A stretch of DNA of 64,000 bases from Candidatus Daviesbacteria bacterium (GCA_030648645.1 JAUSHL010000038.1:3657-67656); one strand, 5' to 3'; counted from the stretch's first letter, positions 9,737 through 39,704 are shown. Numbers and translations: made by a program. The notes: generated from the sequence alone by a model not told the origin.

Positions 9737-10093
9737 TTATTGGATTTTATCTTTCACAAAGCTTGTAATTTCTTTAGCAAACTTATAAGCTTCTTCTGAT
9801 TTTTCCTTAGTAAAATGAATAAATTCTGAAAGATCTGGGTAGCGTGAAGGAATGTAATAGGTGTTAAGAGCAACACACTCGTTTCTTAAACTCTCAAAAG
9901 ACTGGTCACTTTTAATACATTCTTCAAGTAGTGCTCTTAAATCGTGAATTTTCTTGATGTCTTTTTCTTGACTAATCAAATAAGCTTTTAGAGCTTTTTC
10001 CACTGCTTGCTGGGATGTAAAACAAGCTCCATACCAAATTTTTCCTTCCAGACTATTTTTGTAACTATTCAGAGTTTCCCAGTAGACTGTCAT
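9737..10093 (-). CDS. HEPN domain protein (toxin component of HEPN/MNT pair)
   Basis: C-terminal YYIPSRYPD motif characteristic of HEPN proteins partnered with minimal nucleotidyltransferases; 118 aa. Confidence 0.6.
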   Translation of the reverse strand: MTVYWETLNSYKNSLEGKIWYGACFTSQQAVEKALKAYLISQEKDIKKIHDLRALLEECIKSDQSFESLRNECVALNTYYIPSRYPDLSEFIHFTKEKSEEAYKFAKEITSFVKDKIQ

Positions 10094-10157
10094 CGCGAGG
10101 GTCGAAACTTCGACCCGTGGCGATCTAATTAGATTGCTTCGCTACGCTCGCAATGAC
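10088..10157. mobile_element. MITE-like GC-rich palindromic element (tgtcatcgcgagg...ctcgcaatgac)
   Basis: Terminal inverted repeats shared with >10 other copies in window; its terminal tgtcat supplies the ATG of the HEPN gene. Confidence 0.6.
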
Positions 10158-10261
10158 GATTTTATTGGGAAGAACTAATTAGTTACCTATTTTTTGTCCA
10201 GGAAAGATCATCTAATGCATAATTAAGCCATTTCTGAGATGACTTATTTATTGATTTACGA

Positions 10262-10558
10262 TTATCCATATACAATTTTACCAGTCTCGTTAGCCTCTTT
10301 TATAAAAAGATTATCTAGTTTTGCTTTTTCGAATTCCTGGGGTGTTAACACAAATATGTCAACAGCAGTTACTGTTCTTAGAAGTAGATGTACTTGTTTT
10401 TGTCTTTCAAGAAAAGGCAGGGTAGTTTTTTTTATAACGACAAGATCTACATCACTATCTGAGCTGGGTTTACCATTAGCATAAGATCCAAAAAGAATTA
10501 TTTTTTCCGGGTTATAAGGCATAATTTGATCAATAATGTCTTGAACTACTGAATTCAT
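10262..10558 (-). CDS. minimal nucleotidyltransferase (MNT, antitoxin component of HEPN/MNT pair)
   Basis: LFGSYANGKPSSDSDVDLVVI = GS...D.D nucleotidyltransferase motif; 98 aa. Confidence 0.7.
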   Translation of the reverse strand: MNSVVQDIIDQIMPYNPEKIILFGSYANGKPSSDSDVDLVVIKKTTLPFLERQKQVHLLLRTVTAVDIFVLTPQEFEKAKLDNLFIKEANETGKIVYG

Positions 10559-10585
10559 GAGTACATTGTATCATAAAAAAAAAGG

Positions 10586-10812
10586 GGGGGGAGGAAGTAT
10601 AAGCTTATTTAGTTTCACTAAATATCTTGAACCCAAAATTTTGGAGAATTTTAGGTATAAACCAATTTAACTCAATTTTACAACTCTCGTTAAATGGCTT
10701 GAATTCAAAATGAAGCATTTTGAATATAAACCAATTTAACTCGTCCACCAGTGGCGGACTCATTAAATAGTTTGAACCAAAAATTTGCAAATTTTTGGTA
10801 TAAATAACTAGA
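10586..10812. repeat. ~230-bp direct repeat copy 2, right flank of the HEPN/MNT cassette
   Basis: Near-identical to 9486-9722 (shared ggaagtataagcttatttagtttcactaaatatcttgaaccc... and ...tccaccagtggcggactcattaaatagtttgaaccaaaaatttgcaaatttttggtataaataactagatca). Confidence 0.85.
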
Positions 10813-10863
10813 TCAGTTTTTGGGGTTGATAAATTATGCCTCTGTGGTTTATACTTAATAAGT

Positions 10864-11001
10864 ATGCCAAAGCGCACATATCAACCAAAAAAATTAAAAA
10901 GATTGCGAAAACATGGATTCATCAAAAGAATGGAAACTCGTGATGGACAAAAAGTTTTAAAAAGAAGAAGAGCCAGGGGTAGAAAAAAGTTGACGGTATA
11001 G
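10864..11001 (+). CDS. rpmH: 50S ribosomal protein L34 (absent from the ORF track because it is only 45 aa)
   Basis: Translates to [45 protein letters not shown], a classic L34; precedes rnpA. Confidence 0.9.
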
Positions 11002-11003
11002 TC

Positions 11004-11114
11004 TGTCATTCTGAGCACTTCGATGTCATTGCGAGCGAAGTGAAGCAATCTCAGTGTAAACTCAGCGAAGAATCTCTTGAGATTGCTTCTCCGGCTTCGC
11101 CGGATCGCAATGAC
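11004..11114. mobile_element. MITE-like palindromic element between rpmH and rnpA
   Basis: gtcattgcgagcgaagtgaagcaatctc ... gagattgcttctccggcttcgccggatcgcaatgac forms one long imperfect palindrome. Confidence 0.6.
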
Positions 11115-11125
11115 AATAAAATAAA

Positions 11126-11470
11126 ATGCTTCCAAAAAATAAAAGACTTAATCTCAACAAAGATTTTAGATGGGTGGCTTCTGGGAAAAGAATTGAAAAT
11201 AATCTGGTAAAGATGTTTTTAAAAATGAGTCCACCATCTGATGTAGAATTACCACAACCCAAAATAGGAATTTCTCTATCTAAAAATGTTTTTAAGAAAG
11301 CTGTGGATAGAAACAGAGCAAGGCGTCTTGTTTCCAAAGCTTTAGAAAACCTGTATAATGAATTGCCAAGCGGGTTAAATATTGTAGCAATGCCCAAAAA
11401 AGATATTCTGGAAATGAACTCAAATGAGATTACCAAGAACTTGGAAGAGCTATTAAAGAAAGTTTGGTGA
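11126..11470 (+). CDS. rnpA: ribonuclease P protein component
   Basis: Position after rpmH; basic 114-aa protein with RNase P protein-like N-terminus. Confidence 0.8.
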   Translation: MLPKNKRLNLNKDFRWVASGKRIENNLVKMFLKMSPPSDVELPQPKIGISLSKNVFKKAVDRNRARRLVSKALENLYNELPSGLNIVAMPKKDILEMNSNEITKNLEELLKKVW

Positions 11471-11562
11471 ATTTTAAATTTTTAATTTTAAATCAATTTT
11501 TAATTTTTAAACATTTAAACATTAGAAATTCATTAGAAATTATTAATTAGAAATTAAAAATT

Positions 11563-11763
11563 ATGAAACAGATTATAATTTGGCTAATAAATTTTTATCA
11601 GACCTTTTTATCTTTTGATAAAGGGATGTTGGCTATCTTTGCTCCGGGTGGGGCTTGCAAAAACTCCCCCACTTGTTCAGAATATACAAAACTTATGATT
11701 AAAAAACACGGAAGTGTTAAAGGTATAATAATGGGTGGAAGGAGAATTATCTCGTGCAGGTAA
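11563..11763 (+). CDS. yidD: membrane protein insertion efficiency factor YidD
   Basis: SPTCSEY motif (YidD family CxxCSxY); sits between rnpA and yidC. Confidence 0.7.
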   Translation: MKQIIIWLINFYQTFLSFDKGMLAIFAPGGACKNSPTCSEYTKLMIKKHGSVKGIIMGGRRIISCR

Positions 11764-12587
11764 TAACTGATATTTTTAATACTTTCTTCATGGGACCAAT
11801 CCTTAATTTATTGGTACTGATTTTGGATGGTCTAAATTTCCTGCATATTCCGGGAGCTTTTGGTTTATCTATTATTATCCTGACTATTTTAATTAGAATT
11901 TTAGTTTGGCCATTAATGACTAAACAGCTAAAATCTGCCAAGAAAATGCAGGATTTAAAACCTCATTTGGATGCTTTAAAAGTCAAACATAAAGGTGACA
12001 AGAAAGCCTTTGCGGCAGCACAAATGGATCTTTATAAACAACATGGAGTAAATCCTGCCGGTGGATGTTTGCCGGTTTTAATCCAATTCCCGGTGTTGAT
12101 TGCTCTTTATCAAACTATTTTTGCTTTTTTTAATGGCCCCACAGGTTTGGTTCAGATAAATAATATGCTCTATCCTTTTGTCCCTCACCTAAAAACAGTC
12201 CCCAGTTTAGATTTTCTTGGAATTAGTTTAGCAGTTAAGCCTTCAGAATTTAGTCAATATGGTTTTTTACTTTTAGCAATTCCGCTGATCACGGCTCTTC
12301 TAACTTTTTTCCAGTCAAAAATGATGATGCCACCAAAACCATTAAAGGAATACCCAGCAGATTCTCCTAAAGAAAAGAAAGACAAAGTAAGTACTGAGGA
12401 TGCAATGGGGGCAATGCAGGGACAAATGATGTACATGATGCCTGTAATGATTGGTTATTTTGCTTTTCAGTTCCCCATTGGTTTGGCTCTTTATTGGAAC
12501 ACCATGACAATTTTAGGAATTTACCAACAATACAAAGTTTCCGGCTGGGGTGGAATGGAGAGTTGGGTGAAGATTATTAAAAAGTAG
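11754..12587 (+). CDS. yidC: membrane protein insertase YidC (short Gram-positive-type form)
   Basis: YidC/Oxa1 core ...LYKQHGVNPAGGCLPVLIQFPVLIALY...; 277 aa with multiple TM segments. Confidence 0.85.
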   Translation: MQVITDIFNTFFMGPILNLLVLILDGLNFLHIPGAFGLSIIILTILIRILVWPLMTKQLKSAKKMQDLKPHLDALKVKHKGDKKAFAAAQMDLYKQHGVNPAGGCLPVLIQFPVLIALYQTIFAFFNGPTGLVQINNMLYPFVPHLKTVPSLDFLGISLAVKPSEFSQYGFLLLAIPLITALLTFFQSKMMMPPKPLKEYPADSPKEKKDKVSTEDAMGAMQGQMMYMMPVMIGYFAFQFPIGLALYWNTMTILGIYQQYKVSGWGGMESWVKIIKK

Positions 12588-12600
12588 AGATTTTTGTTGT

Positions 12601-12788
12601 GTCATTGCGATCCGGCGAAGCCGGAGTGGCAATCTTTTCTATCTACAATAAACTAATTTAACTCGTCCGCCAACCGGCGGACTCGTTAAATATTTTGAAC
12701 CCAAAATTTTGATTAAAAGTTGTAGACTGGAGTATTTTGGGTATAGATTGCTTCGTCGTCCGCCAGCTGGCGGACTCCTCGCAATGAC
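12601..12788. mobile_element. composite MITE-like element (gtcattgcga...ctcgcaatgac termini) enclosing a hairpin plus promoter-like module
   Basis: Termini match the MITE family; interior carries atttaactcgtccgccaaccggcggactcgttaaat hairpin and ttgaacccaaaatttt...attttgggtata unit. Confidence 0.5.
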
Positions 12789-12924
12789 AGTAATTTTTTC
12801 TGATTGACTGATCCTAGATTTTCCTTTATACCCACATTACTTTAATGGGTTCAAACTTTTTAATGAGACCGCCAGCTGGCGGTTGCAAAATCGAATTAAA
12901 ATAGTTTATACTTACCTTCATTGT

Positions 12925-13416
12925 ATGGAACAAAAAGTTTCGGAAATTTTAGAAAATATTTTAGGACTCCTGGCCCTTGAGGGTTCATTTGAAGTTGTAG
13001 AAAATCCGGAAGAAGTTAGTGTAACTATTGAAACTACAGACCCGGGAAGGCTGATTGGTTTTAGAGGAGAAACTTTAGATTCTTTACAACTCATTGTAAA
13101 TTTAATTTTAAGCAGACAAATAAGTGATGAGGAAAAGTTTAAAAGAGTAGTGATTGATGTTGAAGGCTGGAGAAAAAATAAGGAAGCAGATTTACAAAGA
13201 AGGGCAGAAGATTGGGGCAAAGAAGTACTGGAAACCGGAAAAGAAATAGAACTTGAACCAATGCCTTCTTGGCAAAGAAGAATTGTACATATGGTAATTT
13301 CAGAAACAAAAGGTGTGGAATCAGAAAGTATGGGAGATGGACGAGATAGACATTTAGTCCTCAGACCGGAAATTACTAAAAAAGAAGTTACCAAAAAAAC
13401 TGCAAAGAAAGAATAA
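12925..13416 (+). CDS. jag: Jag/KhpB-like RNA-binding protein (KH + R3H domains)
   Basis: R3H motif region RRIVHMVISETKGVES...GDGRDRHLVL; classic position after yidC; start moved to ATG 12925 because 12883-12924 lies inside a repeat element. Confidence 0.65.
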   Translation: MEQKVSEILENILGLLALEGSFEVVENPEEVSVTIETTDPGRLIGFRGETLDSLQLIVNLILSRQISDEEKFKRVVIDVEGWRKNKEADLQRRAEDWGKEVLETGKEIELEPMPSWQRRIVHMVISETKGVESESMGDGRDRHLVLRPEITKKEVTKKTAKKE

Positions 13417-13479
13417 AGAATAAAGCTTAATTCTTTATTCTGGTTGCTTAATTCTCCATTAATTGGATAGAATAAAGAA

Positions 13480-18185: not shown

Positions 18186-18317
18186 TGTCATCCCGGACTT
18201 CGTCCAAAGGACGATCAGCCTTTGGCTGATGATCCGGGATCCATGAATTTATTTATATAGATTCCTGCCCCTCGGTCCTGAGTCCCTCGGGATCGAAGGA
18301 CTTTCGCAGGAATGACA
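18186..18317. mobile_element. MITE-like element, subfamily 2 (tgtcatcccgg...caggaatgaca)
   Basis: First 60 bp nearly identical to the copy inside valS at 21304-21388. Confidence 0.6.
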
Positions 18318-19223: not shown

Positions 19224-19751
19224 ATGGAAGGTTATAAAAAGTTGGCAAGCTATATTTTAGCTACAGTGATTCATGATTTAACTGCTATATTTGTTAAACG
19301 TTGGATAAGTCCATATTCCCGGACAACAGATCAAATGGAACAGGCAGCCAGATCCGGTAAACAAAATATTGCCGAAGGGTATACAGTCCAAAGCCTGGAG
19401 AGTTATATAAAACTTTGTGGAGTAGCTGAAGGCTCAATTAAAGAACTGGCAATTGATTTTGAAGATTTTTTAAGACAAAGAGGATATTCTATTTGGGATA
19501 AGAATGATGAAAGAGTTAGGGGATTTAGGGCTTTTAGGGCTGTTTGGAAAATACCTAATATCCCCAATACCCCAAATTTACCTAATAATCCTGAAGAAGC
19601 AGCAAATATGCTTTTAACTTTTTGCCAGATGGAGTCTTTTCTTCTTCATAGGCAAATTGAAGCTTTAAGAAATAAGTTTATTTCAGAGGGTGGTTTTAGA
19701 GAAAATTTATTCAAAGAAAGGTTGATAGAAAAGAAAAAGCAAATTAGATAG
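19224..19751 (+). CDS. four-helix-bundle protein of the 23S rRNA intervening-sequence-encoded family (TIGR02436-like), with C-terminal extension
   Basis: MEGYKKLASYILATVIHDLTAIFVKRW...EQAARSGKQNIAEGY resembles IVS-protein family; here free-standing. Confidence 0.45.
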   Translation: MEGYKKLASYILATVIHDLTAIFVKRWISPYSRTTDQMEQAARSGKQNIAEGYTVQSLESYIKLCGVAEGSIKELAIDFEDFLRQRGYSIWDKNDERVRGFRAFRAVWKIPNIPNTPNLPNNPEEAANMLLTFCQMESFLLHRQIEALRNKFISEGGFRENLFKERLIEKKKQIR

Positions 19752-21996
19752 TTTTTGGCCAATTTTTAGTCATAATAGATTCTCCTGGAGCTATCTTTTG
19801 CCATAACTCTTCTGATAAAAAAGGCATAAAAGGATGGAGGAGCTTTAAGCAGGTTTGGAAAACATATTCTAAAACTGGTTGAGCCTCAGCTCTTCTGTCT
19901 TTGCTTTTTTCAATATAAACATCAGCAAACTTATGCCAGATAAATTCATATAATGTTTCTGTGGCCAGATGAAGCTGGAAGGATTCTAAATTTTTGGTCA
20001 CATCATTAATAGTTTTGTTTAGTTCTTCTAGTATTTTTTTATTATCGATATGAGATTGCTTCTCCGGCAATTGCCGGATCGCAATGACGTCAGTGCCGAG
20101 CGTTGTTGAAATGTCATTGCGAGGAGCCGTAGGCGACGTGGCAATCTCTTTTGGTTTTAGTTCATAAATAAATCTGTAAATATTTTTTATCTTTGTCCCA
20201 AAGTTCCGGTAATTTCTGCATCTTTCATCTATTATTTGTCGGGAGGTTCTGCCATCACGGCCGGGGGCAGAGTAGGAATAGAGTGCCATGCGGGTAGCAT
20301 CTACTCCCCACAGTTGTACCAAATCATAAGGATTAATACCATTGCCTAATGATTTGGAAAACTTTTTTCCATCTATTCCTCTGAGTGTTCCATGGAAAAA
20401 CATGTTTTTAAAAGGAATACTATCCTTAAACCAAAGACTTAACATAATTTGGCGGGCAATCCAAAGGTATTTAATCTCCGGAGCAGTTAGTTCAAAATCC
20501 CAGGGGAAGTATTTTTCCAATTCATCAGATTTGTCAGGTTTACCCTCCGAAGCTTTAGCGGAGGAGGGCCAATTAAGTGTAGATAAGGGCCACATTCCGG
20601 AAGAAAACCAAGTGTCTAAAACTTTCTCTTCCTGCACCCAGTCTTCTCCAGGTGAGTCTTTTGATACTTGTATTTGATTCCCTTTGTACCATATCGGTAT
20701 ACGGTGTCCCCACCAAAGATTGCGTGAGATACACCAATCATGAATTCCACTTAGCCAGTCTCCCAGAATTTTGTCATAGTTTTTGGGTAAAAAGTTGATT
20801 TTATCTAAATTCTTTAAAGCTTTTTCTGCCAATGGTTTCATTTTGATAAACCATTCCTCGGAGATTAAAGGCTCAACAGTAGTTTTGCATCTTTCGCAAA
20901 CAGGGACTGAATGAGTATATTCTTCTACTTTTTCGATTGTTCCATTTTGTTCTAAAATTTCAGCAACTTTTGCTCGGGCCTCGGCAATTTTTAAACCCTG
21001 CAAATCTCCGGCTAGATCAGTCATTTTTCCTAATTTATCAATGGCATGTAAAATCGGAAGGTTATGATCTTTGCCGATGGCAAAGTCCAAAGGATCATGA
21101 CCGGGGGTAATTTTTAAAGCCCCAGTCCCAAAATCTTTTTCAACACGGGTATCTTCAAAAATTGGGATTTGATTATTGTTTAATGGATTGATGGCAAATT
21201 TTCCAATAAATTTGGCAAATTTTGGATGATTGGGAAAAACTGCAATACCGCAATCTGCATAAATTGTTTCCGGACGGGCGGTGGCAATAGTAATAAATTG
21301 ATCTGTCATCCCGTACTTCGTCCAAAAGACGATCAGCCTTTGGCTGATGATACGGGATCCATGGATTCCCGCTTCCGCGGGAATGACATTATTGTTTTGT
21401 ATTTGATATTTAACATAATAAAGCTTTTCTTTTCTTTCCTCATATTCCATTTCCACATCTTCAATGGCAGTGTTGCATTTGGGACACCACTCTACAATAT
21501 AAGCCCCTTTATAAATTAAATCTTGCTCCCACAAAGTTTTAAATTCTACAAAAGTGGCTTGTTGAATTTTGGGATCCAAGGTAAAAACTTCTCTTGACCA
21601 GTCAGCCGAAATACCTAAAAAAGTCCAGGTGTTATGAAAAGAATTATAAATTTTTTCTTTAAATTTCCAAGCCCTTTTCATCCAACTATCATATCCTAAC
21701 TTTTGTTTGGAAAGATTTTCTTTGGCCAGTTCTTTGTTAAAAGTTGATTCAAAAATAATGCCGGCATGATCAACCCCCGGTAATAATAAAACATCAAATC
21801 CTTGCATTCGTTTGAAACGGGCAACTGCATCCAAAATTGATTGTTGCATAGCATGACCGAGGTGCAAATCTCCATTGACATTGGGTGGAGGCATTAAAAG
21901 GGAATAAGGTTTTTTAGAAGACTTAGGATCTGCTTTAAACAGCCCCGCCTTTTCCCAGAAATCATACAATTTTTGTTCTGAAGTTTGTTCATCCAT
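19744..21996 (-). CDS. valS: valine--tRNA ligase (short form) carrying two in-frame repeat-element insertions
   Basis: HIGH-type motif PPPNVNGDLHLGHA, KMSKS-type KFSKSLGN, editing-domain region WCPKCNTAIEDVEME; insertions at 20052-20148 and 21304-21388. Confidence 0.8.
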   Translation of the reverse strand: MDEQTSEQKLYDFWEKAGLFKADPKSSKKPYSLLMPPPNVNGDLHLGHAMQQSILDAVARFKRMQGFDVLLLPGVDHAGIIFESTFNKELAKENLSKQKLGYDSWMKRAWKFKEKIYNSFHNTWTFLGISADWSREVFTLDPKIQQATFVEFKTLWEQDLIYKGAYIVEWCPKCNTAIEDVEMEYEERKEKLYYVKYQIQNNNVIPAEAGIHGSRIISQRLIVFWTKYGMTDQFITIATARPETIYADCGIAVFPNHPKFAKFIGKFAINPLNNNQIPIFEDTRVEKDFGTGALKITPGHDPLDFAIGKDHNLPILHAIDKLGKMTDLAGDLQGLKIAEARAKVAEILEQNGTIEKVEEYTHSVPVCERCKTTVEPLISEEWFIKMKPLAEKALKNLDKINFLPKNYDKILGDWLSGIHDWCISRNLWWGHRIPIWYKGNQIQVSKDSPGEDWVQEEKVLDTWFSSGMWPLSTLNWPSSAKASEGKPDKSDELEKYFPWDFELTAPEIKYLWIARQIMLSLWFKDSIPFKNMFFHGTLRGIDGKKFSKSLGNGINPYDLVQLWGVDATRMALYSYSAPGRDGRTSRQIIDERCRNYRNFGTKIKNIYRFIYELKPKEIATSPTAPRNDISTTLGTDVIAIRQLPEKQSHIDNKKILEELNKTINDVTKNLESFQLHLATETLYEFIWHKFADVYIEKSKDRRAEAQPVLEYVFQTCLKLLHPFMPFLSEELWQKIAPGESIMTKNWPKTI

Positions 21997-22028: not shown

Positions 22029-23348
22029 TCAATCAGAAAGAGAGATGTTAGGGTTTGCTTGTAGTTTGATTGGTTCAATTGGGTGATAGTTGTATAAAGC
22101 ACTAGTTGCAATATAGACAGCATTATCGGTACAAAGCTTGGGGGTAGGAATAGAAATTCGCACATTCATCTTTTTTTGCAAAGATTGTGCCACAAGCTTT
22201 TTGGCAAGAATTTGGTTGGCTGCAACTCCTCCTGCAACCAAAATTTGTTCAACTTTAAATGTTTGGACGGCTTTTAAAGTTTTGGCAACTAAAACATCGG
22301 TGATTGCTTCTTGGATAGAGGCTGAGAGGTTTGATATTTCTTGGGATTGCTTCTCCGGCAATTGCCGGATCGCAATGACATTGTTCTTCTTGTCATCGCG
22401 AGGAGTGTTAACGACGAAGCGATCTCTTGCAATATTTGAAATTGCAGTTTTTAAACCGGAAAAAGAAAAATCCCAGCCATAGGCTGGTCCGCCTTTGGCG
22501 GAAAAATTTCCATTCTCCAGCATTGGTCGGGGTAGTGGATATGCTTTGGGATTTCCTTTTTCTGCCATTTTTGAAATGGACGGACCTCCGGGATAAGGTA
22601 AACCCAGTAGCCTGGCAGATTTATCAAAACATTCACCGGCAGCATCGTCACGGGTTCCACCTAAATATTTATATTTACCATGATCTGTCATTAAAATTAA
22701 ATCTGTATGACCTCCTGAAACAAGAAGACCAATGGCGGGGAAGGTGGGTACTGTAAAATTGTCATTGCGAGGAAGGTCGATACTTCGACCCGGCGCGGCA
22801 ATCTTATTAATTGATTTGGCAGATTGTTTCGCGGAGTTTACGCTGAGATTGCTTCGCTCTGCTCGCAATGACGTCGAAGTGTTCGCAATGACAGGAGAAA
22901 TCCAATTTGCATAAAAATGACCCAGTAAGTGATTCACCGGTATTAATGGTTTATTCCAAACAGTTGCCAGAACTTTAGCAGTTTCTACTCCCACAAGGAG
23001 AGAACCAATTAGCCCCGGACCTTCGGTAACAGCAATGGCATCGATAGATTTTATTATCTCTTTATTGTCATGCTGAACTTGTTTCAGCATCTTGTCTGTG
23101 GATCCCGAAATAAATTCGGGATGACACTTTGCTTGAGTAAGTGCTTCCTGAATGACGGGAATAATGGATTTTAATTGTTCACGGGCTGCCTGTTCCGGGA
23201 TCACACCGCCGAATTTAGCTTGTAACTCAGCCGAGGATGCCACAATATTGGACAATATCGTTACTCGTTTCTCGTCACTCGCCACGATAGCACAAGCTGT
23301 CTCATCACAGGATGACTCAATTCCTAAAATGATACGGGGATTTTTCAT
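22029..23348 (-). CDS. tsaD: tRNA N6-adenosine threonylcarbamoyltransferase TsaD (Kae1/Gcp family) carrying two in-frame repeat-element insertions
   Basis: N-terminus ILGIESSCDETACAIV, HLLGHFYAN and LVSGGHT motifs; 439 aa vs ~340 typical; insertions at 22345-22436 and 22760-22893. Confidence 0.85.
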   Translation of the reverse strand: MKNPRIILGIESSCDETACAIVASDEKRVTILSNIVASSAELQAKFGGVIPEQAAREQLKSIIPVIQEALTQAKCHPEFISGSTDKMLKQVQHDNKEIIKSIDAIAVTEGPGLIGSLLVGVETAKVLATVWNKPLIPVNHLLGHFYANWISPVIANTSTSLRAERSNLSVNSAKQSAKSINKIAAPGRSIDLPRNDNFTVPTFPAIGLLVSGGHTDLILMTDHGKYKYLGGTRDDAAGECFDKSARLLGLPYPGGPSISKMAEKGNPKAYPLPRPMLENGNFSAKGGPAYGWDFSFSGLKTAISNIARDRFVVNTPRDDKKNNVIAIRQLPEKQSQEISNLSASIQEAITDVLVAKTLKAVQTFKVEQILVAGGVAANQILAKKLVAQSLQKKMNVRISIPTPKLCTDNAVYIATSALYNYHPIEPIKLQANPNISLSD

Positions 23349-27537: not shown

Positions 27538-28203
27538 ATGCACCCTATTCAAAAACACATCCTGCATGAATTAATTTTTCACTCCTTTCTCCCTTATTCT
27601 CGGTTGAAACCACAAGGTATTGAAAGCAATTTGTTTATCTATCATTTAAAACAGCTAATTTCGGAAGGTTTAATCCAAAAAAGAGCTGATGGTAAATATG
27701 AGTTAAGTCCGGAGGGGCAAAGTTTTATTGAACACTTAAGTCTAAAAAACCTAAAACCAATAATTCAACCTAAAATTGTGACTTTAATTGTTTGTCAAAA
27801 TAAAAATGGAGAATTTTTGCTCTACAAAAGAAATCACCAGCCATTTTTAGGCCTCGTTGGTTTTCCTTATGGGAAGATACATTTGGGAGAGACGATTGCG
27901 GAGGCTGCAGAGAGGGAGTTAAAAGAAAAAACTGACTTGTCTGCAGAGCTACAACATCGGGGGGATGTTTATCTGACAACGTTTCGGGATAAAAATTTAC
28001 TCACCCAGACATTTTGTCATATTTTTACAGCAAACAATGTCAAAGGGGAACTTCTGGCAAAATCAGAAATTGGGGAATGCTTCTGGTCAAAAATAGATTT
28101 TTCTGAAGAAAAATTGATACCGGGGTTTAAAGATGTATTAAATTTGGTTAAAAAATCTAAAAATAATCTCTTTTTCGCTGAGTTTATTTATCATCTAAAA
28201 TAA
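27538..28203 (+). CDS. NUDIX hydrolase with N-terminal winged-helix-like domain
   Basis: Nudix box GKIHLGETIAEAAERELKEKTDL. Confidence 0.7.
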   Translation: MHPIQKHILHELIFHSFLPYSRLKPQGIESNLFIYHLKQLISEGLIQKRADGKYELSPEGQSFIEHLSLKNLKPIIQPKIVTLIVCQNKNGEFLLYKRNHQPFLGLVGFPYGKIHLGETIAEAAERELKEKTDLSAELQHRGDVYLTTFRDKNLLTQTFCHIFTANNVKGELLAKSEIGECFWSKIDFSEEKLIPGFKDVLNLVKKSKNNLFFAEFIYHLK

Positions 28204-28243: not shown

Positions 28244-28322
28244 TGTCATTCCGAGTGCATCCGAGGAATCTTCCGTCTTAAGCGGGAAGATTGCCACGCT
28301 CACTATGTTCGCTCGCAATGAC
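28244..28322. mobile_element. MITE-like element (tgtcattccgag...ctcgcaatgac)
   Basis: Termini match the MITE family. Confidence 0.55.
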
Positions 28323-28360
28323 ATTAATGGGAAATACTAAATAGTTGCCAAAATAGGTAT

Positions 28361-28389
28361 TTGACATATTGTCATATGTATGCTATAAT
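28361..28389 (+). promoter_or_regulatory. vapBC promoter TTGACA-17-TATAAT with embedded palindrome tgacatattgtcatatg (probable antitoxin operator)
   Basis: ttgacatattgtcatatgtatgctataat. Confidence 0.55.
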
Positions 28390-28395
28390 ACTTGT

Positions 28396-28626
28396 ATGTT
28401 GATGAGAACTACCTTAAGAATAGAAGAAAACCTAAAAAGAATTGCTGAGCTTAAAGCTTTGGAAGAAGATACTACCCTGCAGGCAATTTTTAACCTGGCT
28501 TTGGAAGATTATTTGGAAAAAGATGCCCGTCAGAACGCCAAAAAGATTATTTTTAAAACACATCATTTAGGAGTTCCTTTAGATAACTTAACTAGGGACG
28601 ATTTTTATCCTGATCCGAAGATTTAA
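28396..28626 (+). CDS. vapB: VapB-family antitoxin (start uncertain: ATG 28396 or 28402; ORF track begins 28369, which would overlap the promoter)
   Basis: Small acidic protein directly preceding PIN gene; stop 2 nt before vapC ATG. Confidence 0.5.
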   Translation: MLMRTTLRIEENLKRIAELKALEEDTTLQAIFNLALEDYLEKDARQNAKKIIFKTHHLGVPLDNLTRDDFYPDPKI

Positions 28627-28627
28627 C

Positions 28628-29038
28628 ATGATTATTGATAGTAATATTTTAATCTATGCAATTAACTCCGACTCTCCCAAAAACAAAAAAGCTCAGGAAT
28701 TTTTAAGAGAGAATTTAAAAAATTTAGAAGTTACTCATCAAAATATATTAGAAACTCTAAGAGTTTTAACCCATCCGAAATTTTCCAAAAAAATGAAATC
28801 ACAAGATGCTCTAGAATCAATTACAGGTATAATAAGAGTTGCCAGAATTATCCAGCCCAGATATGAAACCTATTATGTATTTTTGGAGTTACTAAAAAAA
28901 CACCAGTTTGGGGGAGATAAAATTTTTGATATATATCTTATAGCTACAGCTTTAAGTAATAATATTGAGACAATAGCTACAGATAATACAAAAGATTTTA
29001 TAAAATTCAAGGAGATCAAGACAATAAATCCTTTTTAG
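28628..29038 (+). CDS. vapC: PIN-domain ribonuclease toxin VapC
   Basis: MIIDSNILIYAIN... conserved acidic residues of PIN fold. Confidence 0.75.
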   Translation: MIIDSNILIYAINSDSPKNKKAQEFLRENLKNLEVTHQNILETLRVLTHPKFSKKMKSQDALESITGIIRVARIIQPRYETYYVFLELLKKHQFGGDKIFDIYLIATALSNNIETIATDNTKDFIKFKEIKTINPF

Positions 29039-35723: not shown

Positions 35724-35734
35724 AACATATGCAG

Positions 35735-35835: not shown

Positions 35836-36558
35836 TGAATTGGTATGGAAAACACGTTTAGTAAATTTTTTAAAAATTCTCAATTGATCAGTGTTTGTTT
35901 GAAGATATAAATTCATTATATTGTCTACTCTCAAAATTATTTCTGCTGTGGCAGGATTTTTATTGGAAATACTATTATTTAACTCATAATATAAAGTTGC
36001 AGTTGGATTATTGGGTTTTATATTTAACATGGTGTATCTGAAATATCCTGTTTTATCTACAGAAATAAAATTATGAATTTTTTCATTTCTTTGTCTGTAA
36101 TCTAAAGGTTTTTTATCAAAACTTATTTCCAGCTTGTTTATATCCGGATCAGAAATATAATAAGTAATTTGTAATATTTCATCATTTATTTTTATTTCGC
36201 GTTGATAGGCAAAAGGGTTTGGTTTTGTTGTTTTTTTATCCTGTAATAATTTATCAATAATTAATTGTCTTAAAGTTTTGATTCTATTGAAGGTTTGCAG
36301 TTTTTCAGCATCTATAATATTTTGTTGTTCTTGGAGAACCGTTTTTTCTTCGAAGGTTTCAAGAAATGTACTTACGGGAACATTGGTATCTAAACACAAC
36401 CATGTTTCAACTTGTTCAATAATTTTTGTATAGGCAGTTATCGGGGTATAGGGTTGACCAATGGAGGTAGAAAATCGTTTACTTTCAACTAAAACTTCCA
36501 GATATTTTAATCTGTCATTAAAAGTTGGTTGACCAGTTGTTTCTTTTTCCTGCAACAT
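35833..36558 (-). CDS. hypothetical protein
   Basis: ORF track only; last codons lie inside the GC-rich element. Confidence 0.3.
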   Translation of the reverse strand: MLQEKETTGQPTFNDRLKYLEVLVESKRFSTSIGQPYTPITAYTKIIEQVETWLCLDTNVPVSTFLETFEEKTVLQEQQNIIDAEKLQTFNRIKTLRQLIIDKLLQDKKTTKPNPFAYQREIKINDEILQITYYISDPDINKLEISFDKKPLDYRQRNEKIHNFISVDKTGYFRYTMLNIKPNNPTATLYYELNNSISNKNPATAEIILRVDNIMNLYLQTNTDQLRIFKKFTKRVFHTNS

Positions 36559-36596
36559 AGACCTATATTATAACCGATAGTATAAGTAAATTCAAA

Positions 36597-37544
36597 TTAT
36601 AGTGGTGGTAGATTGATAAATTGAACTTCAGGTTCTAGGATAATTCCAAATTTTTCTTTTACTTCCTGCATTAAATTATGAGACAATTGCCAGACATCCG
36701 AAGCTTTGCCGTGCCCTTTATTAATTATCAAATTAGCATGAAAATTGGAAACTTCAATATCACCTATTTTTTTGCCTTTAGCTCCAATTAAATCCAAAAG
36801 TACTCCAGCCGGAACTTTTCCATAAACAATTTTATCTTTTGGAATAAGATTTAATCCGGCACCTGCCGGATCTGCAGGAATTTTTTCAACCGGAATATTT
36901 TTAAAAAATGATCCTGGACATTTTAATCCCTGAGGGTATTTGGCCATTCTTTGAGCCAGAATTTCCAGAGATTCTTTACTTAAAAGATCAGTATCTCCTT
37001 TAGGAAATTTAAAATAGGCTTCTAGAATAATTAGTCCGCCGACCGCCGAATTTCTTTTGAAGATACTTTCTCTGTAAGCAAACTCACATTGATTTTTGGG
37101 TAAAAGTTTAATTTCTGTACTATCTAAATAGGCCACTTCGGTTAAATAATCAGCAATAGTTTGTCCATAAGCTCCGGCATTGCCAAAAATTGCCCCACCG
37201 ACTGTGCCGGGAATTCCTGCCATTTTTTGTATTCCTGCCAAACCATTTTCGATACTGTAATCTACCAATTGAGAGAGTTTAGTTCCGCCCTGAACAATCA
37301 ATTCACCATCTTTCTTAATTCCCGAAATATCATTTTTAATAACCAGTCCGGCAAAACCTTCATCAGAGATAAGTAGATTACTGCCACTGCCTAAAATTAA
37401 AACAGGCAGATTTTTGGTCTTAGCCCATTTCACTCCTTCAATTAAATCTGCCTGATTATTTATTACCAGAAAATATTTAGCCGGACCACCAATATCAAAA
37501 GTGGTGAAAGGTGCCAGAGGAATATTTTCTTGAATACTGATCAT
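36597..37544 (-). CDS. murB: UDP-N-acetylenolpyruvoylglucosamine reductase
   Basis: N-terminus ...PLAPFTTFDIGGPAKYF...LPVLILGSGSNLL typical of MurB FAD-binding domain. Confidence 0.85.
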   Translation of the reverse strand: MISIQENIPLAPFTTFDIGGPAKYFLVINNQADLIEGVKWAKTKNLPVLILGSGSNLLISDEGFAGLVIKNDISGIKKDGELIVQGGTKLSQLVDYSIENGLAGIQKMAGIPGTVGGAIFGNAGAYGQTIADYLTEVAYLDSTEIKLLPKNQCEFAYRESIFKRNSAVGGLIILEAYFKFPKGDTDLLSKESLEILAQRMAKYPQGLKCPGSFFKNIPVEKIPADPAGAGLNLIPKDKIVYGKVPAGVLLDLIGAKGKKIGDIEVSNFHANLIINKGHGKASDVWQLSHNLMQEVKEKFGIILEPEVQFINLPPL

Positions 37545-37567
37545 AGTTTAATTATACTCCTTTAAAA

Positions 37568-39190
37568 TCAAAGACCCGGTAAACAGGAGATATAATCTTC
37601 CAAATCAGGCCCATGGGTTGAATAAATTGTTGGAGCAATCGTTCTACTTAAAAATAGTAGACATCTTTTAATCTCAGGAGGCAGATCTTTTAGATTTTTT
37701 GCTTTTATTGTTTTTGCTTCATCACAACCTGCAAATTCAATACAGTGAGCATCTAAATTATTTAACATTTGCTGATAGGGTATATATGGTGTTTCCAGAC
37801 CGGATTTTCTATCACTGTAGTGGGTAATAACCCGCATGGGCTGGTTTGGCCGGATAGCATCTAAATGAGTAACTGCCAGAAAATCATAACCGGCAACTCT
37901 TCGTAAATATTCCAATATAGATAAAGGAATAGGAGAAATACCTCTAAGTCGGCCTGTAGATTTACCTTTTTCCTTAAATTCTATTTGAATATCAGTTTCC
38001 CACTGTTCATTTTTGACATTTGGTAAATTTCTACAACCAACACTGGAGGTGTACGTTTTAAGTGTACCCATTCTATAGGCAATCTCATTCGGTATAATCC
38101 GTCCATATGTTGCATCGGAAATAAAATTTGATCCTGGACGACTGGCTGTTACATCCGGATAAACACCATGATAAGGATCAAGACCCATACCTTGGGCTCC
38201 TTCAAAGGTAATAGGGATGGAAGGATTATTCCAGACTGTTCCTAAAAGATGATAAGCATCTTTTAACAAATGTGGTTTCAAAACTTCACGGCACAACTCA
38301 AGTTTTTCAATAAATTCTCTTTTTGTTCCCACTGGTCGTTCAACTGGTTTACTCGATTTTAATGATTCTTTCATATTATAAACAGAAATTTCTGCTAAAT
38401 TGGCACCGAACCCCCAAAGTTGTTTTTCGCAAAAATCATAATGATTACCAAAAATTTCTTGATAATCCGGTTCAAACAAATCATTAAAGAAAACTGCATT
38501 GCGAAGGAGTAAACTGCTATAAGCAGGAGCAATGCCCCTACCGGTGGATCCCTTTGATCCGGGAAGATCTTGTTTATAAATTTTCTCGATTGCCCGGTGA
38601 GTGTCCAAAGCAAGTGGAGTAAAACCATCAATAAGTAAATTGGCAGGAAGTTTTGTTCCCAAGCTTTGTTCGACTGCATCCATTTCAACAATCAATTCGG
38701 TTGGATGTATTACCATGCCACGGGAGATAATAGCTGTTGCACCCTCTTGTGCAATTGCCATTGGTAATTGATGAGTTACTACAGTTAGTCCATTGAAAAC
38801 AGCTTCATGACCGGCATTTCCTCCTCCATTATATCTTAATGAATAAAGTTGATGATGTTTTTCGTATAATTGGTGGTTTATTTTTGCCATGACTGCACCT
38901 TTGCCTTCATCACCAAAAAGAGCTCCCTCGACACCGTAACTGTTTGGTCTGATATTAGATGTTTGGGATCTATTTAAAGAGTTGGTAAGACATTCGGAAA
39001 GTTCTTTGGTAAGAGTAGTGTCACTTAAGTTTTGTACATAATCATAAAAATATAAAATTTCTGTGCTTATCATTGTAAACAGGCAACCGGACAATTTTAA
39101 CAAATCAAAGAAAGAAAGCAAGTCCTTGACAATAGCAAGAAGCATGTTTAAAATATCAACCCAGAGAGTAATCTGCCAGCTCTTCGACAA
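37568..39190 (-). CDS. purA: adenylosuccinate synthetase-like protein with ~80-aa N-terminal extension
   Basis: FGDEGKG, GGGNAGH and GSTGRGIAPAY motifs match AdSS signatures. Confidence 0.65.
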   Translation of the reverse strand: MSKSWQITLWVDILNMLLAIVKDLLSFFDLLKLSGCLFTMISTEILYFYDYVQNLSDTTLTKELSECLTNSLNRSQTSNIRPNSYGVEGALFGDEGKGAVMAKINHQLYEKHHQLYSLRYNGGGNAGHEAVFNGLTVVTHQLPMAIAQEGATAIISRGMVIHPTELIVEMDAVEQSLGTKLPANLLIDGFTPLALDTHRAIEKIYKQDLPGSKGSTGRGIAPAYSSLLLRNAVFFNDLFEPDYQEIFGNHYDFCEKQLWGFGANLAEISVYNMKESLKSSKPVERPVGTKREFIEKLELCREVLKPHLLKDAYHLLGTVWNNPSIPITFEGAQGMGLDPYHGVYPDVTASRPGSNFISDATYGRIIPNEIAYRMGTLKTYTSSVGCRNLPNVKNEQWETDIQIEFKEKGKSTGRLRGISPIPLSILEYLRRVAGYDFLAVTHLDAIRPNQPMRVITHYSDRKSGLETPYIPYQQMLNNLDAHCIEFAGCDEAKTIKAKNLKDLPPEIKRCLLFLSRTIAPTIYSTHGPDLEDYISCLPGL

Positions 39191-39205
39191 GCTCAGGGTA
39201 AAAAT

Positions 39206-39535
39206 ATGGTAAAAAAAATAACTAGAACCTATAACCTAGAACCTAAAACCTCAGTCAAACCATTGGCAGGTTATGTTTTAATAGAACCTGCTGAAGCGGA
39301 AACTAAAACTTCTTCAGGTATAATCCTTCCGGAAAATGCTCAGGAAAAACCCAGTTTGGGAACAGTTTTAGCTTGTGGAGAAAGTTTGATCTTAGAAAAT
39401 GGCAAAACTATTGGATCCCCAGTCAAACCTGGGGACAAGGTTTATTTTAAAAAATGGGGCAGTGATGATATTAAAATTGAAGGAAAGGAATTAAAATTAG
39501 TCAAATTTGATGATCTGATGGCTATCGTTGAGTGA
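39206..39535 (+). CDS. groES: co-chaperonin GroES
   Basis: ...KPLAGYVLIEPAEAETKTSSGIILPENAQEKPSLGTVLACG... Confidence 0.85.
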   Translation: MVKKITRTYNLEPKTSVKPLAGYVLIEPAEAETKTSSGIILPENAQEKPSLGTVLACGESLILENGKTIGSPVKPGDKVYFKKWGSDDIKIEGKELKLVKFDDLMAIVE

Positions 39536-39554
39536 AGTTGACCCGCCTCTGGCG

Positions 39555-39704
39555 AGGTCATCCTGAGCGTAGTCGAAGGATTGATGACTTAATGGCAATA
39601 GTGGAGTGAGATTGCTTCTCCGCCAGTTGGCGGATCGCAATGACGCCAGCACTGAGTGTAGTTGAAGTGTCATTGCGAGGAGCCGAAGGCGACGTGGCAA
39701 TCTA
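39555..39704. mobile_element. MITE-like element immediately downstream of groES
   Basis: gaggtcatcctgagcg ... gagattgcttctccgccagttggcggatcgcaatgac ... gtcattgcgaggagccgaaggcgacgtggcaatct. Confidence 0.6.

Follow-up and report, generated by a model that had tools for sequence, protein, structure and literature searches.

The hairpin repeats of a 64-kb window (the whole stretch of DNA analysed, from a Patescibacteria-type MAG) are best explained as members of the pan-bacterial (C/T)GTC-tagged hairpin superfamily to which the CGTC REPs and the NTS/SRM repeats belong, and they are probably geneless, Ssn-dependent derivatives, about half of which lie within genes. They are a further case of a known, very widespread hairpin family and not a new one.

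A dispersed family of tagged hairpins

We curated 31 hairpin units, grouped in 14 clusters that span 10088 to 63022. The sequence TGTCATTGCGAG, allowing at most one mismatch, was matched 18 times compared to 0.13 times expected from dinucleotide shuffles, and 0 of 100 shuffles reached 18. With the same tolerance, TGTCATCCCG gave 9 matches in the window where 1.6 were expected. This bears out the dispersed, GC-rich palindromic family with common termini described in the initial annotation, and its six named intergenic loci were all recovered, with coordinates right to within 1-2 nt. Its figure of at least 13 copies referred to real repeats and understated their number, while its range of 10088-39704 was too narrow since more copies lie at 45331-45404, 61571-61607 and 62934-63022. 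The GC content of 55-60% was also set too high; that of the clusters was 43-55% (50% overall), compared to 34% for the window. Copies are not confined to this locus, as the TGTCATTGCGAG-type unit was seen across numerous bacterial phyla and also on viral contigs.

The units are 26-59 nt long, occur in both orientations at equal frequency and are arranged as singles or as inverted dimers. An inverted pair is present in 12 of the 14 clusters, with dimer spacers that range from 5 to 111 nt and with two arms that are often of different subtypes. Solo units were found at 20112, 39668 and 61571, and tags-inward pairs at 20052/20112 and 22343/22391. Fifteen of the 31 units are wholly intragenic and in frame (in the genes for ValRS, TsaD and two FemAB-like proteins), and a 16th overlaps the HEPN start codon.

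The units follow one basic plan on one DNA strand, in which a free (T/C)GTC tag precedes a stem that opens with A-T/T-A pairs, the interior is variable and a C stands directly 3' of the stem. When folded with DNA parameters, 28 of 28 complete units had four unpaired tag nucleotides, a stem that begins with AT and a tail. Apart from 39556 and the 45331 group, all complete units combine YGTC, the AT-stem and the C. The same tag and tail go with six or more stem types (ATTGC, ATCGC, ATCCCGGA, ATTCCC/ATTCCT, ATGCTGAA and ATATCACACCC), and tag and tail are constant while the stem letters covary from subtype to subtype. Of the two subfamilies originally proposed, the principle holds in that several exist, while the dimers of "subfamily 2" are in fact heterodimers of two unit types.

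The commonest type here, SRM-1, reads TGTC-ATTGC-GA-(variable G/C stem and loop)-G(A/T)(A/G)-GCAAT-CT. It is long and bipartite, consisting of a 5-bp stem, a GA/GNR internal loop, a hypervariable second stem and the tail CT. In seven copies stem 2 is CCGGC/GCCGG (six) or the compensated CCGCC/GGCGG (39609), and other genomes supplied 154 instances in which the inner stem was almost always paired while its letters varied by copy. A compensatory G-C to T-A change likewise separates the 57-nt unit at 18186 from that at 21304. Three short units (21363, 23066 and 23100) have 8-bp stems, loops of 4-5 nt and the tails CCA or CT.

Intergenic clusters

The inverted, tags-outward dimer at 10088..10158 (units 10088-10126(+), with an ATCGC stem, and 10131-10158(-)) lies between the genes for MNT (10262-10558 -) and HEPN (9737-10093 -). 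As had been proposed, it supplies the HEPN ATG, which is read on the opposite strand from the CAT of its TGTCAT tag (10088-10093). A composite cluster at 11004..11115 starts 3 nt past the rpmH stop codon and ends before rnpA. It contains a split or truncated ATTCT-type unit (11004-11023, the 3' part lying at ~11060-11076) in which an SRM-1 unit is nested (11024-11051(+)), followed by a second SRM-1 at 11080-11115(-). The inverted dimer at 12600..12789 (12600-12635(+) and 12745-12789(-)), which has yidC (11754-12587) on one side and a KH/R3H gene (12883-13416) on the other, encloses a 109-nt spacer with an unrelated hairpin and a promoter-like module.

Upstream of the L25 gene, the intergenic heterodimer at 18186..18317 combines a 57-nt three-way unit (18186-18242(+), outer stem ATCCCGGA, tail CCA) with a unit at 18259-18317(-) that has the stem ATTCCTGC. 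Another inverted heterodimer, at 28244..28323, pairs a unit with stem ATTCC (28244-28271(+)) with an SRM-1 (28288-28323(-)) and is flanked by a NUDIX gene (27538-28203) on one side and by an 85-aa ORF and then a PIN gene (28369-29038) on the other. The three-unit cluster at 39556..39703 is located 3' of groES (39206-39535), ahead of the three unannotated ORFs by which groES and groEL are kept apart; it consists of a degenerate ATCCT-type unit (39556-39583(+)) and two SRM-1 units (39609-39645(-) and 39668-39703(+)). A third subfamily at 45331..45404 is formed by overlapping tandem perfect palindromes (TGTCATATCACACCC-CAAG-GGGTGTGATATGACA) that carry the same tag as the other units. Its family membership is less certain, with a G instead of a C directly 3' of the stem.

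Hairpins within conserved genes

The ValRS gene (19744-21996 -) harbours a tags-inward pair at 20052..20147 (units 20052-20089(-) and 20112-20147(+)), translated as ...EIATSPTAPRNDISTTLGTDVIAIRQLPEKQS..., and a heterodimer at 21304..21388. The latter is composed of 21304-21360(+), almost identical to the 18186 unit, and 21363-21388(-), which reads TGTCATTCCCGCGGAAGCGGGAATCC. The identity between the intergenic and the ValRS copy of this 57-nt unit begins at the tag. The heterodimer encodes ValRS residues 203-233, for which T. thermophilus ValRS (1GAX) has no counterpart.

Three insert sites were found in the TsaD gene (22029-23348 -). Site 1 corresponds to a short canonical heterodimer at 23066..23126 (23066-23092(+) with stem ATGCTGAA; 23100-23126(-) with stem ATCCCGAA and tail CCA), which encodes CHPEFISGSTDKMLKQVQHDN. 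Site 2 is an insert of ~45 aa (VIANTSTSLRAERSNL...IAAPGRSIDLPRNDN) encoded by a dimer plus a truncated third unit at 22760..22893 (22760-22804(+), 22846-22873(-) and 22874-22893(-)), while site 3 (...VVNTPRDDKKNNVIAIRQLPEKQS...) is a tags-inward pair at 22343..22425 (22343-22380(-) and 22391-22425(+)). The TsaD inserts are missing in many homologues and coincide with segments of the structure model with pLDDT<50, i.e. low-confidence loops. The same three loops carry inserts in several lineages, and SRM-1 hallmark peptides were present in 15 of 120 TsaD homologues compared to 0.56 in shuffles. The best TsaD match is 66% identical, and sites with and without inserts were thus compared at the protein level.

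Two FemAB-like paralogues each contain an in-frame insert that is missing from the other. The gene at 61241-62173(-) has a single SRM-1 (61571..61607 (-)) that reads VIAIRRKPEKQS and is lacking in the paralogue, and the gene at 62245-63342(-) has an inverted SRM-1 dimer at 62934..63022 (62934-62978(+) and 62985-63022(-)), within whose insert region the BLASTP alignment of the two proteins shows a gap of 23 columns in the paralogue. In-frame insertion into conserved genes, absent from homologues or a paralogue, was thus seen for TsaD, ValRS and the FemAB-like pair. As read off the sequence, five of the six reading frames of SRM-1 (TGTCATTGCGATCCGGC...GCCGGAGAAGCAATCT) are stop-free, so that copies landing in frame in tolerant loops would persist as peptide inserts.

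Association with GIY-YIG nuclease genes

In other genomes, GIY-YIG genes (PF01541) were found between inverted SRM-1 units (loci L051, L024 and L048). The flanks of 80 metagenomic ssn homologues, picked by protein only, were compared with a background of 0.06 units per 150 nt. A unit was present upstream in 53 of 74 and downstream in 63 of 77 of these homologues, and 49 of the 71 that were evaluable had TGTCATTGCGAG...GCAATCT units on both sides. Intact ssn genes of Patescibacteria (L321, L323 and L325) are bracketed by TGTCATTGCGAG...GCAATCTCTGGTT / AACCAGAGATTGC...CGCAATGACA. The bracketed genes encode proteins of ~95-98 aa that match PF01541, and they are candidates for the cd10448-type ssn genes with a single GIY-YIG domain. 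This link between units and ssn was recovered independently here, though it has already been published (PMC11893778).

Ssn proteins are GIY-YIG ssDNA nucleases that cut NTS/SRM hairpins (Chenal et al., Nat Commun 2025, PMC11893778). Experiments on four Neisseria and Wolbachia proteins demonstrated ssDNA hairpin binding and cutting a few nt upstream; the NTS is CGTCATTCCCGCGMAVGCGGGAATCYRG, in which a GTC just before the palindrome and a C directly behind it are critical for cleavage and binding by Ssn (PMC11893778). By analogy, we infer that SRM-1 would also be bound and cut, as ssDNA and on one strand only, by its cognate Ssn. As no Ssn-like GIY-YIG ORF of at least 50 aa is present in the 64-kb window, to which the analysis of this genome was confined, the repeats described here may be relics.

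Relation to known repeat systems

The units share with SRM/NTS the YGTC tag, the AT-initiated hairpin, the C directly after the stem and the bracketing of genes for GIY-YIG proteins of ~95-98 aa (SRM-ssn-SRM, here known from other genomes), as well as a high copy number in the reduced genomes of host-associated bacteria. Compared to the Neisseria NTS consensus, unit 21363-21388 has two deviations, namely the T of its tag (consensus C, with TGTC as a common variant) and a single base of the loop. The search pattern published for SRMs, HGTCWYN(0-2)YYVSBRHN(0-5)WNVSBRGN(0-2)RNCYNB (PMC11893778), had 0 strict matches in the window compared to 0.06 in shuffles. When one mismatch was allowed there were 6 matches against 1.8 expected, two of which are real units (21361-21388 and 28244-28273); unit 21363-21388 misses the pattern by this single mismatch. 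The Neisseria NTS itself is matched by the pattern, whereas SRM-1, which dominates here, is longer and bipartite and falls outside it, the pattern being too short. The present host, a Patescibacteria-type MAG with a window lacking ssn, also differs: neither "Patescibacteria" nor any "Candidat..." name occurs in the main text of PMC11893778, and gene-internal copies are not treated there.

The CGTC-tagged REPs comprise the families CGTC-1 to -4, including Neisseria dRS3 (Di Nocera et al., BMC Genomics 2013, PMC3733652). They have the tag CGTC, often TGTC, complementary A and T at the first two stem positions, a stem of 8-9 bp, a loop of 4-5 nt and a 3-nt tail with the consensus CCA; RPE-4 and RPE-6 of Rickettsia are CGTC-4 and CGTC-1, respectively (PMC3733652). 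The units described here agree with them in the tag, the complementary A-T/T-A stem start, the CCA tail on some short units, the predominance of inverted dimers, the presence of some intragenic units and the lack of RAYT association. By contrast, only the short units (23066, 23100 and 21363) fit an 8-9 bp stem and a 4-5 nt loop, SRM-1 and the 57-59-nt units do not conform to the stem and loop description of CGTC-1 to CGTC-4, and the phylum is outside the five reported (PMC3733652).

The REPIN/RAYT system (Bertels and Rainey 2011; Nunvar 2010) is similar in its tagged hairpins, in inverted doublets as the likely replicating form, in the absence of target-site duplications (TSDs) and in an enzyme present in few copies and flanked by repeats. 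It differs in its GTAG (or GTGG) tag as opposed to YGTC, and in its HUH Y1 transposase as opposed to a GIY-YIG nuclease; the units do not have the GTAG/GTGG tag, and no flanked Y1 gene was found at 120 repeat-bearing loci. A further parallel is offered by the Rickettsia palindromic elements, which are also in-frame palindromes in essential genes of a reduced genome, adding 12-45 aa in apparently tolerant loops. They belong to another lineage, and the likeness is taken as a functional analogy. RPE-1 is longer, about 100-150 bp.

Alternative explanations

The initial annotation regarded the repeats as MITE-like. Classical MITEs arise by deletion from an IS that encodes a DDE transposase, and they carry terminal inverted repeats (TIRs) and TSDs. 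The dimers are indeed numerous, short and flanked by AT, the two inverted ends are identical, a gene-carrying version with matching ends exists, and a palindromic, plausibly non-autonomous family with common termini is what we observed. Yet the palindrome stops at the tag and no TSD was detected in 77 unique dimers, with abutting direct repeats of k>=2 occurring once compared to 6.4 expected. Moreover, each presumed TIR is a hairpin unit in its own right, present twice in a dimer and found elsewhere alone, in tandem or tags-inward, and the variable spacers and the unlike arms are not those of a TIR-bounded MITE. A search for the cognate transposase that had been suggested (IS200/IS605, IS630/Tc1 or IS5) by ORF clustering of 120 repeat-bearing loci turned up no transposase family, neither Y1 nor DDE. 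We consider classical MITEs highly improbable. The lack of TIRs and TSDs, the outcome that the initial annotation had itself set against its reading, makes the elements REP-like, specifically CGTC-tagged REPs (PMC3733652). Movement in trans by a RAYT, an IS200-like Y1/HUH transposase, would suit a REPIN-like plan of a short unpaired tag by a hairpin, inverted dimers foldable to a long hairpin, singles and no TSD. We nevertheless consider it very unlikely in view of the YGTC tag, of the Y1 genes in species with CGTC repeats, none of which is flanked by CGTC units (PMC3733652), and of the GIY-YIG genes that the units do bracket. In addition, no Y1 gene was recovered at the 120 loci, and neither an IS200 TnpA probe nor one for E. 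coli RayT had a tblastn match in the window or at any locus, a weak test since the probe sequences were approximate. This agrees with the earlier statement that the window contains no transposase.

Selection at each site for non-mobile functional motifs (RNA terminators, mRNA stabilisers or protein-binding sites) could explain why many copies are situated just downstream of genes (rpmH, yidC, groES, NUDIX), and a GC-rich hairpin in an AT-rich genome could act in transcript termination or stabilisation, roles discussed in PMC3733652. This is quite unlikely to be the general explanation, however, since both orientations are equally common, nearly half of the units lie within ORFs where a terminator would be harmful, and near-identical copies occur at unrelated sites as well as across phyla and viral contigs. 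Furthermore, Rfam had no match at the units, and the RNA form of the hairpin is not bound by Ssn (PMC11893778). Some copies may secondarily be used as terminators. The imperfect palindromes adjoining small accessory genes (HEPN/MNT, PIN, the groES-groEL insert) are also reminiscent of integron-like attC sites that mark gene cassettes, but they end in YGTCAT ... ATGACR instead of RYYYAAC ... GTTRRRY core sites, no integrase is nearby, most copies are in or beside housekeeping genes and the accessory genes are not individually bracketed, which makes such an origin vanishingly improbable.

A model for the origin of the repeats

Under the preferred reading, that of Ssn-dependent tagged hairpins, the single-stranded hairpins would be recognised and cut by small GIY-YIG Ssn nucleases. 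The "autonomous" form is an IS-like SRM-ssn-SRM element in which two inverted units bracket an ssn gene of ~300 bp, and the geneless dimers and single units of the window would be non-autonomous derivatives or solo ends. Copying around the genome would be an Ssn-dependent, single-strand process without duplication of the target, with the enzyme encoded elsewhere in the genome or since lost, and copies that landed in frame where an essential protein has a tolerant surface loop would persist there. The spreading mechanism is in its entirety something we infer, because Ssn is, to our knowledge, known only to bind and cut ssDNA and not for strand transfer or copying. In Neisseria, its documented role is the restriction of transforming ssDNA, not transposition.

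A more far-reaching joint reading holds that SRM-ssn-SRM elements are truly mobile, active and driven by a GIY-YIG single-strand nuclease, that SRM-1 is a distinct pan-bacterial and phage-borne class missed by SRM searches, and that geneless derivatives in Patescibacteria reshape TsaD, ValRS and FemAB. We regard this combination as tentative and, on balance, rather doubtful. If true, it would define a class of transposons without a DDE, HUH or serine/tyrosine recombinase, and the geneless derivatives in Patescibacteria would still be supplying in-frame peptide insertions to essential proteins.

Implications

The recently characterised Ssn ssDNA nucleases and their hairpin repeats are now extended to Patescibacteria-type genomes. 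Since the published pattern does not capture TGTCATTGCGAG...GCAATCT, the unit type with the widest spread, the copy-number surveys published so far probably undercount the family. The hairpins have repeatedly entered essential genes in frame, as RPEs did in Rickettsia, and this may account for some lineage-specific insertions in conserved CPR proteins, which matters to annotators and structure modellers. Small, repeat-dense genomes such as this one could help to settle whether Ssn moves repeats.

The repeats are single, oriented hairpin units

With one mismatch allowed, the 12-mer TGTCATTGCGAG occurs 18 times in the 64-kb window as compared with 0.13 in dinucleotide-preserving shuffles (n=100, none of which reached 18), and TGTCATCCCG matches 9 times at the same tolerance versus 1.6 expected. 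The repeat family proposed in the initial annotation is therefore real, and all six intergenic copies that it had listed were recovered at their positions. A scan for GTCAT plus a 5-nt stem with its complement no more than 70 nt away, followed by inspection and folding, yielded 31 units in 14 clusters. These clusters sum to 1,392 nt (2.2% of the window) and have a G+C content of 50%, which is lower than the 55-60% previously given, against 34% for the window. The extent reported before was also too narrow, since the clusters at 45331-45404, 61571-61607 and 62934-63022 fall outside it.

The repeating entity is one oriented hairpin of 26-59 nt and not, as had been suggested, a 45-190 bp element with terminal inverted repeats. 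All complete units adopt one common fold when DNA energy parameters are used: four unpaired nucleotides at the 5' end (TGTC, less often CGTC), a stem with A-T and T-A as its first two pairs and a variable interior, and a C immediately 3' of the stem that is followed by T or C. Subtypes vary in their stem letters (ATTGC/GCAAT, ATCGC/GCGAT, ATCCCGGA/TCCGGGAT, ATTCCCGC/GCGGGAAT, ATGCTGAA/TTCAGCAT and ATCCCGAA/TTCGGGAT), but complementarity is always kept, and tag and tail are invariant. The commonest type, here called SRM-1 (for Ssn-related motif), is bipartite and reads TGTC-ATTGC-GA, a G/C-rich second stem and loop, and then G(A/T/C)(A/G)-GCAAT-CT. A K-turn was considered for its GA/GAA internal loop and rejected by argument, not computation, because the loop sizes do not fit. 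Ten matches to a fuzzy SRM-1 regular expression on the window (at 8030, 13210, 13858, 22879, 24622, 32472, 33775, 33961, 35233 and 57538) were dropped as false after inspection.

Units are found singly (61571, 39668), as inverted dimers with outward tags and spacers of 5-111 nt (10088, 12600, 22760, 23066, 28244, 62934 and the nested pair at 11024-11115), as pairs with inward tags (20052/20112, 22343/22391), and in nested or truncated form (11004-11115, 22874-22893). Dimers frequently combine arms of different subtype. Accordingly, the elements at 18186 and 21304 that had been assigned to a second subfamily do exist, but they are heterodimers of different unit subtypes. The cluster at 45331-45404 consists of overlapping, tandem perfect palindromes (TGTCATATCACACCC-CAAG-GGGTGTGATATGACA) with the TGTCAT tag on both strands and no C tail, a layout like that of the NTSvar type (CGTCATACTCGGG...).

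Several other features of the window were recorded. A second, unrelated repeat module (around 10600-10810, 12655-12745 and 12846-12882) comprises a GC hairpin (GTCCGCCAnCnGGCGGAC) and then a sigma-70-like promoter with TTGAAC, a palindromic AAAATTT spacer and TATAAA; three copies lie in tandem upstream of rpmH, one lies between the units of the 12600-12789 dimer and one, inverted, closely follows that dimer. Imperfect intergenic palindromes built of A and T only, with TTTTAAA/TAATTTT repeats, occur at 5103-5169, 6287-6353 and 11477-11562. The sole Rfam match in the window is a DUF3800-III RNA (RF02962) at 9302-9428(-), directly downstream of the ORF at 8648-9298 (52 bits versus a gathering threshold of 43.8, E = 2e-9).

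Copying of units to unrelated sites leaves no target duplication

Two 57-nt three-way units, one intergenic (18186) and one in the ValRS gene (21304), match almost completely from the tag to ...GGGATCCATGRATT. Their identity starts at the tag, their flanks are unrelated, and one stem pair has changed in a compensatory manner from G-C to T-A. The second stem of seven SRM-1 copies is CCGGC/GCCGG in six and the compensated CCGCC/GGCGG in one (39609), and GAGCCG(T/A)AGGCGAC is common to two other SRM-1 copies; these shared forms indicate sub-lineages inside the genome. Tag, first stem and tail of SRM-1 are conserved, while the interior varies yet stays paired.

Target-site duplications, which the initial annotation had proposed to look for, were sought in a non-redundant set of 77 SRM-1 dimers, taken from both the window and the fetched loci. 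None were evident: complementarity of the dimers ends at the tag, and abutting direct repeats of at least 2 nt were present in 1 dimer versus 6.4 expected. Copies of a unit have reached unrelated sites, and no target was duplicated in the process. In the same dimers, the 8 nt 5' of the tag are pyrimidine-rich and G-poor, with a mirror-image purine bias on the other side, and this may reflect a preference at the site of cleavage or insertion by the nuclease Ssn.

Essential genes carry in-frame copies

Fifteen units lie wholly within long minus-strand ORFs, and a sixteenth reaches into the start of the HEPN ORF at 9737-10093(-). According to Pfam, the unit-bearing ORFs encode a class-I aminoacyl-tRNA synthetase (19744-21996(-); ValRS, best PDB match 1GAX), TsaD (22029-23348(-)) and two FemAB-family proteins (61241-62173(-) and 62245-63342(-)). 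No genic unit shifts the reading frame or introduces a stop codon. Read by eye, the commonest SRM-1 subtype (TGTCATTGCGATCCGGC...GCCGGAGAAGCAATCT) is stop-free in five of its six reading frames, which goes some way to explain why genic copies survive.

TsaD of the window has 439 aa, whereas the 119 other homologues among the matches listed have 331-429 aa, the closest of these being 66% identical. In an alignment with 17 homologues the extra length falls at three sites, of which sites one and two are empty in homologues P0003, P0004, P0006, P0020, P0069 and P0097; other homologues have different inserts at the same sites together with hallmark peptides (e.g. P0007, ...SLRASAKQS...IATSVASLLPRND...). 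An AlphaFold2 model built on this alignment has a confident core, and the three inserts coincide with segments of pLDDT <50 (79-92, 154-196 and 314-327), suggesting that they form exposed, tolerated loops. A fourth low-pLDDT segment (284-290) belongs to an unrelated lineage-specific insert: at residues ~280-292 the sequence FSAKGGPAYGW, also seen in P0002 and P0007, does not derive from the hairpin repeats. SRM-1 hallmark peptides were detected in 15 of the 120 TsaD homologues among the matches listed, including that of the window, versus 0.56 after shuffling, and TsaD has therefore been colonised recurrently among its relatives. Those of the listed homologues that bear a source name are designated Patescibacteria, 'Candidatus ...' or Microgenomates.

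Residues 203-233 of ValRS sit exactly between two blocks that align to T. thermophilus ValRS, and the second insert region gives only gaps in that alignment. When the FemAB-like paralogues are aligned, each is gapped at the insert of the other, over 23 and 12 columns. The ATG of the HEPN ORF is the complement of CAT in the tag at 10088, and the HEPN profile match begins near residue one, which bears out the earlier proposal that an element supplies this start codon.

Two gene arrangements were also noted. The ORF at 19224-19751(+) overlaps the 3' end of the ValRS gene and has a sub-threshold match to 23S rRNA-intervening-sequence proteins (31.8 versus 33.8 bits). Between groES (39206-39535) and groEL (40881-42518), a three-unit hairpin cluster precedes three ORFs of 128, 150 and 93 aa without a Pfam match (39723-40865), an unusual interruption of the groESL operon.

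SRM-1 is found in many phyla

An exact scan for TGTCATTGCGAG-N10-40-GCAATCT in a collection with one genome per species returned at least 120 loci. The matches listed include Chloroflexota (among them the isolate Chloroflexus islandicus), Planctomycetota, Nitrospirota, Desulfobacterota, Bacillota, Gammaproteobacteria, Rickettsiales, the Bacteroidota isolates Chryseobacterium, Flavobacterium and Ochrovirga, Omnitrophota, Atribacterota, Leptospirales and several Patescibacteria lineages. By our own arithmetic, a uniform random model predicts ~135 chance matches in this 596-Gb collection. The matches are nevertheless genuine family members, because in nearly all of the 154 pattern instances the interior pairs perfectly into a hairpin although its sequence varies, many instances are joined as inverted dimers or lined up in tandem, and 3-5 copies occur at several loci. 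Head-to-tail tandem SRM-1 arrays with periods of ~50 and ~92 nt occur at L003 1371-1957 and L064 1626-2273 (Chloroflexus sp.); no such array was seen within the window.

The pattern was also present at a minimum of 120 loci (L201-L320) in IMG/VR viral contigs. Some of these contigs may be misassigned host DNA; those that are not would be a possible route for spread between phyla. An Ssn-like protein (E = 1e-36) is encoded as well at one of the loci, L271.

The same units bracket ssn genes

The ORFs of all 120 repeat-bearing loci were clustered in search of a RAYT or other transposase. No such family emerged, and the sole suggestive one was a GIY-YIG protein of ~95 aa (PF01541). At locus L051 the gene for this protein is directly enclosed by an inverted pair of SRM-1 units, with 9 nt between the upstream unit and the ATG and 7 nt between the TAA stop and the inverted unit, and the arrangement is alike at L024 and L048. 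At L048 (2514-3019, Candidatus Falkowbacteria) the bracketed ssn gene is split by a ~200-nt insert with inverted ends (GATGGTTACAAAACTATTT...), a different small element within the nuclease gene.

To control for bias, 80 metagenomic GIY-YIG homologues were picked by protein alone, and flanks were counted with a corrected detector, as one demanding a 6-bp stem misses SRM-1 units. Against a background of 0.06 units per 150 nt, a unit was present upstream of 53 of 74 genes (median gap 29 nt) and downstream of 63 of 77 (median gap 21 nt, often over the stop codon), and 49 of 71 evaluable genes were flanked on both sides with tags outward. Searching for proteins similar to the product of the reconstructed Falkowbacteria gene gave 2,888 homologues; many of the best have 98 aa, and several are named as Patescibacteria, Parcubacteria or Falkowbacteria. 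Three of these genes were inspected together with their flanks and are all bracketed, by TGTCATTGCGAG...GCAATCTCTGGTTAA- upstream and -ACC(A/G)GAGATTGC...C(G/A)CAATGACA downstream. In one of the three, L325, the element lies between pheS and pheT. The window itself contains no ssn gene.

These results meet two published descriptions. In the first (Di Nocera et al. 2013, PMC3733652), 'CGTC-tagged REPs', a group that takes in Neisseria dRS3 as well as Rickettsia RPE-4 and RPE-6, carry short tails that fit CCA, are mostly dimers with some intragenic copies, and 'seem lacking a dedicated transposase'. SsnA, a 94-aa GIY-YIG protein, binds the Neisseria NTS (CGTCATTCCCGCGMAVGCGGGAATCYRG) as ssDNA and cuts a few nucleotides upstream of it, and the critical positions are the three nucleotides that precede the palindrome and the C that follows it; homologues of various phyla have 'Ssn-related motifs' at their flanks, and NTS-ssnA-NTS as a whole resembles an insertion sequence (Chenal et al. 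2025, PMC11893778). Since these papers already cover the system, the GIY-YIG link found here is an independent re-derivation. The unit at 21363-21388 (TGTCATTCCCGCGGAAGCGGGAATCC) departs from the NTS consensus at just two bases, the T of its tag and one base in the loop. The published degenerate SRM pattern has no strict match in the window and reaches two true units at one mismatch; strict or fuzzy, it was unusable as a detector there.

Mechanism and alternatives

Reading the repeats as classical MITEs captures a real family, but the terminal inverted repeats resolve into single hairpins, the 77 dimers fail the test for target duplication, and the cognate transposase of an IS type that was to be sought was absent from the 120 loci. 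RAYT-driven REPINs resemble the units in architecture and differ in both tag and enzyme; no Y1 transposase turned up among the ORFs of the 120 loci, nor in a tblastn search with approximate probes, which is a weak test. RNA or terminator motifs fit poorly: copies 3' of genes could act in this way secondarily, but both strands are equally used, many copies are genic, and Rfam at gathering thresholds gave no match at the repeats. As attC sites the hairpins lack the core sequences.

The repeats instead belong to the CGTC-REP/Ssn-related hairpin family, to which they bring a long variant and a host lineage that is new. Once folded, the top strand is bound by Ssn proteins, which nick it 5' of the tag (PMC11893778), and the same unit type brackets ssn genes, those of Patescibacteria included. 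Dimers and solo units that lack the gene would derive from SRM-ssn-SRM elements as non-autonomous forms and would have spread through a single-strand process that depends on Ssn, for instance at replication forks or on incoming ssDNA, and stop-free, in-frame copies would persist in tolerant loops. It would be equally possible that Ssn acts here, by analogy with Neisseria, to curb the recombination of transforming ssDNA, which is compatible with the spreading of elements by Ssn.

A literature search on palindromic elements in CPR bacteria returned nothing relevant, a search with sequence strings gave unrelated primers only, and the main text of PMC11893778 holds neither 'Patescibacteria' nor a 'Candidat...' name. 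To the known system the window contributes a Patescibacteria-type host, the dense, in-frame and RPE-like colonisation of its essential genes, and a dominant long SRM-1 unit that is invisible to the published degenerate SRM pattern. These observations touch on the question of whether Ssn drives the spread of the repeats.
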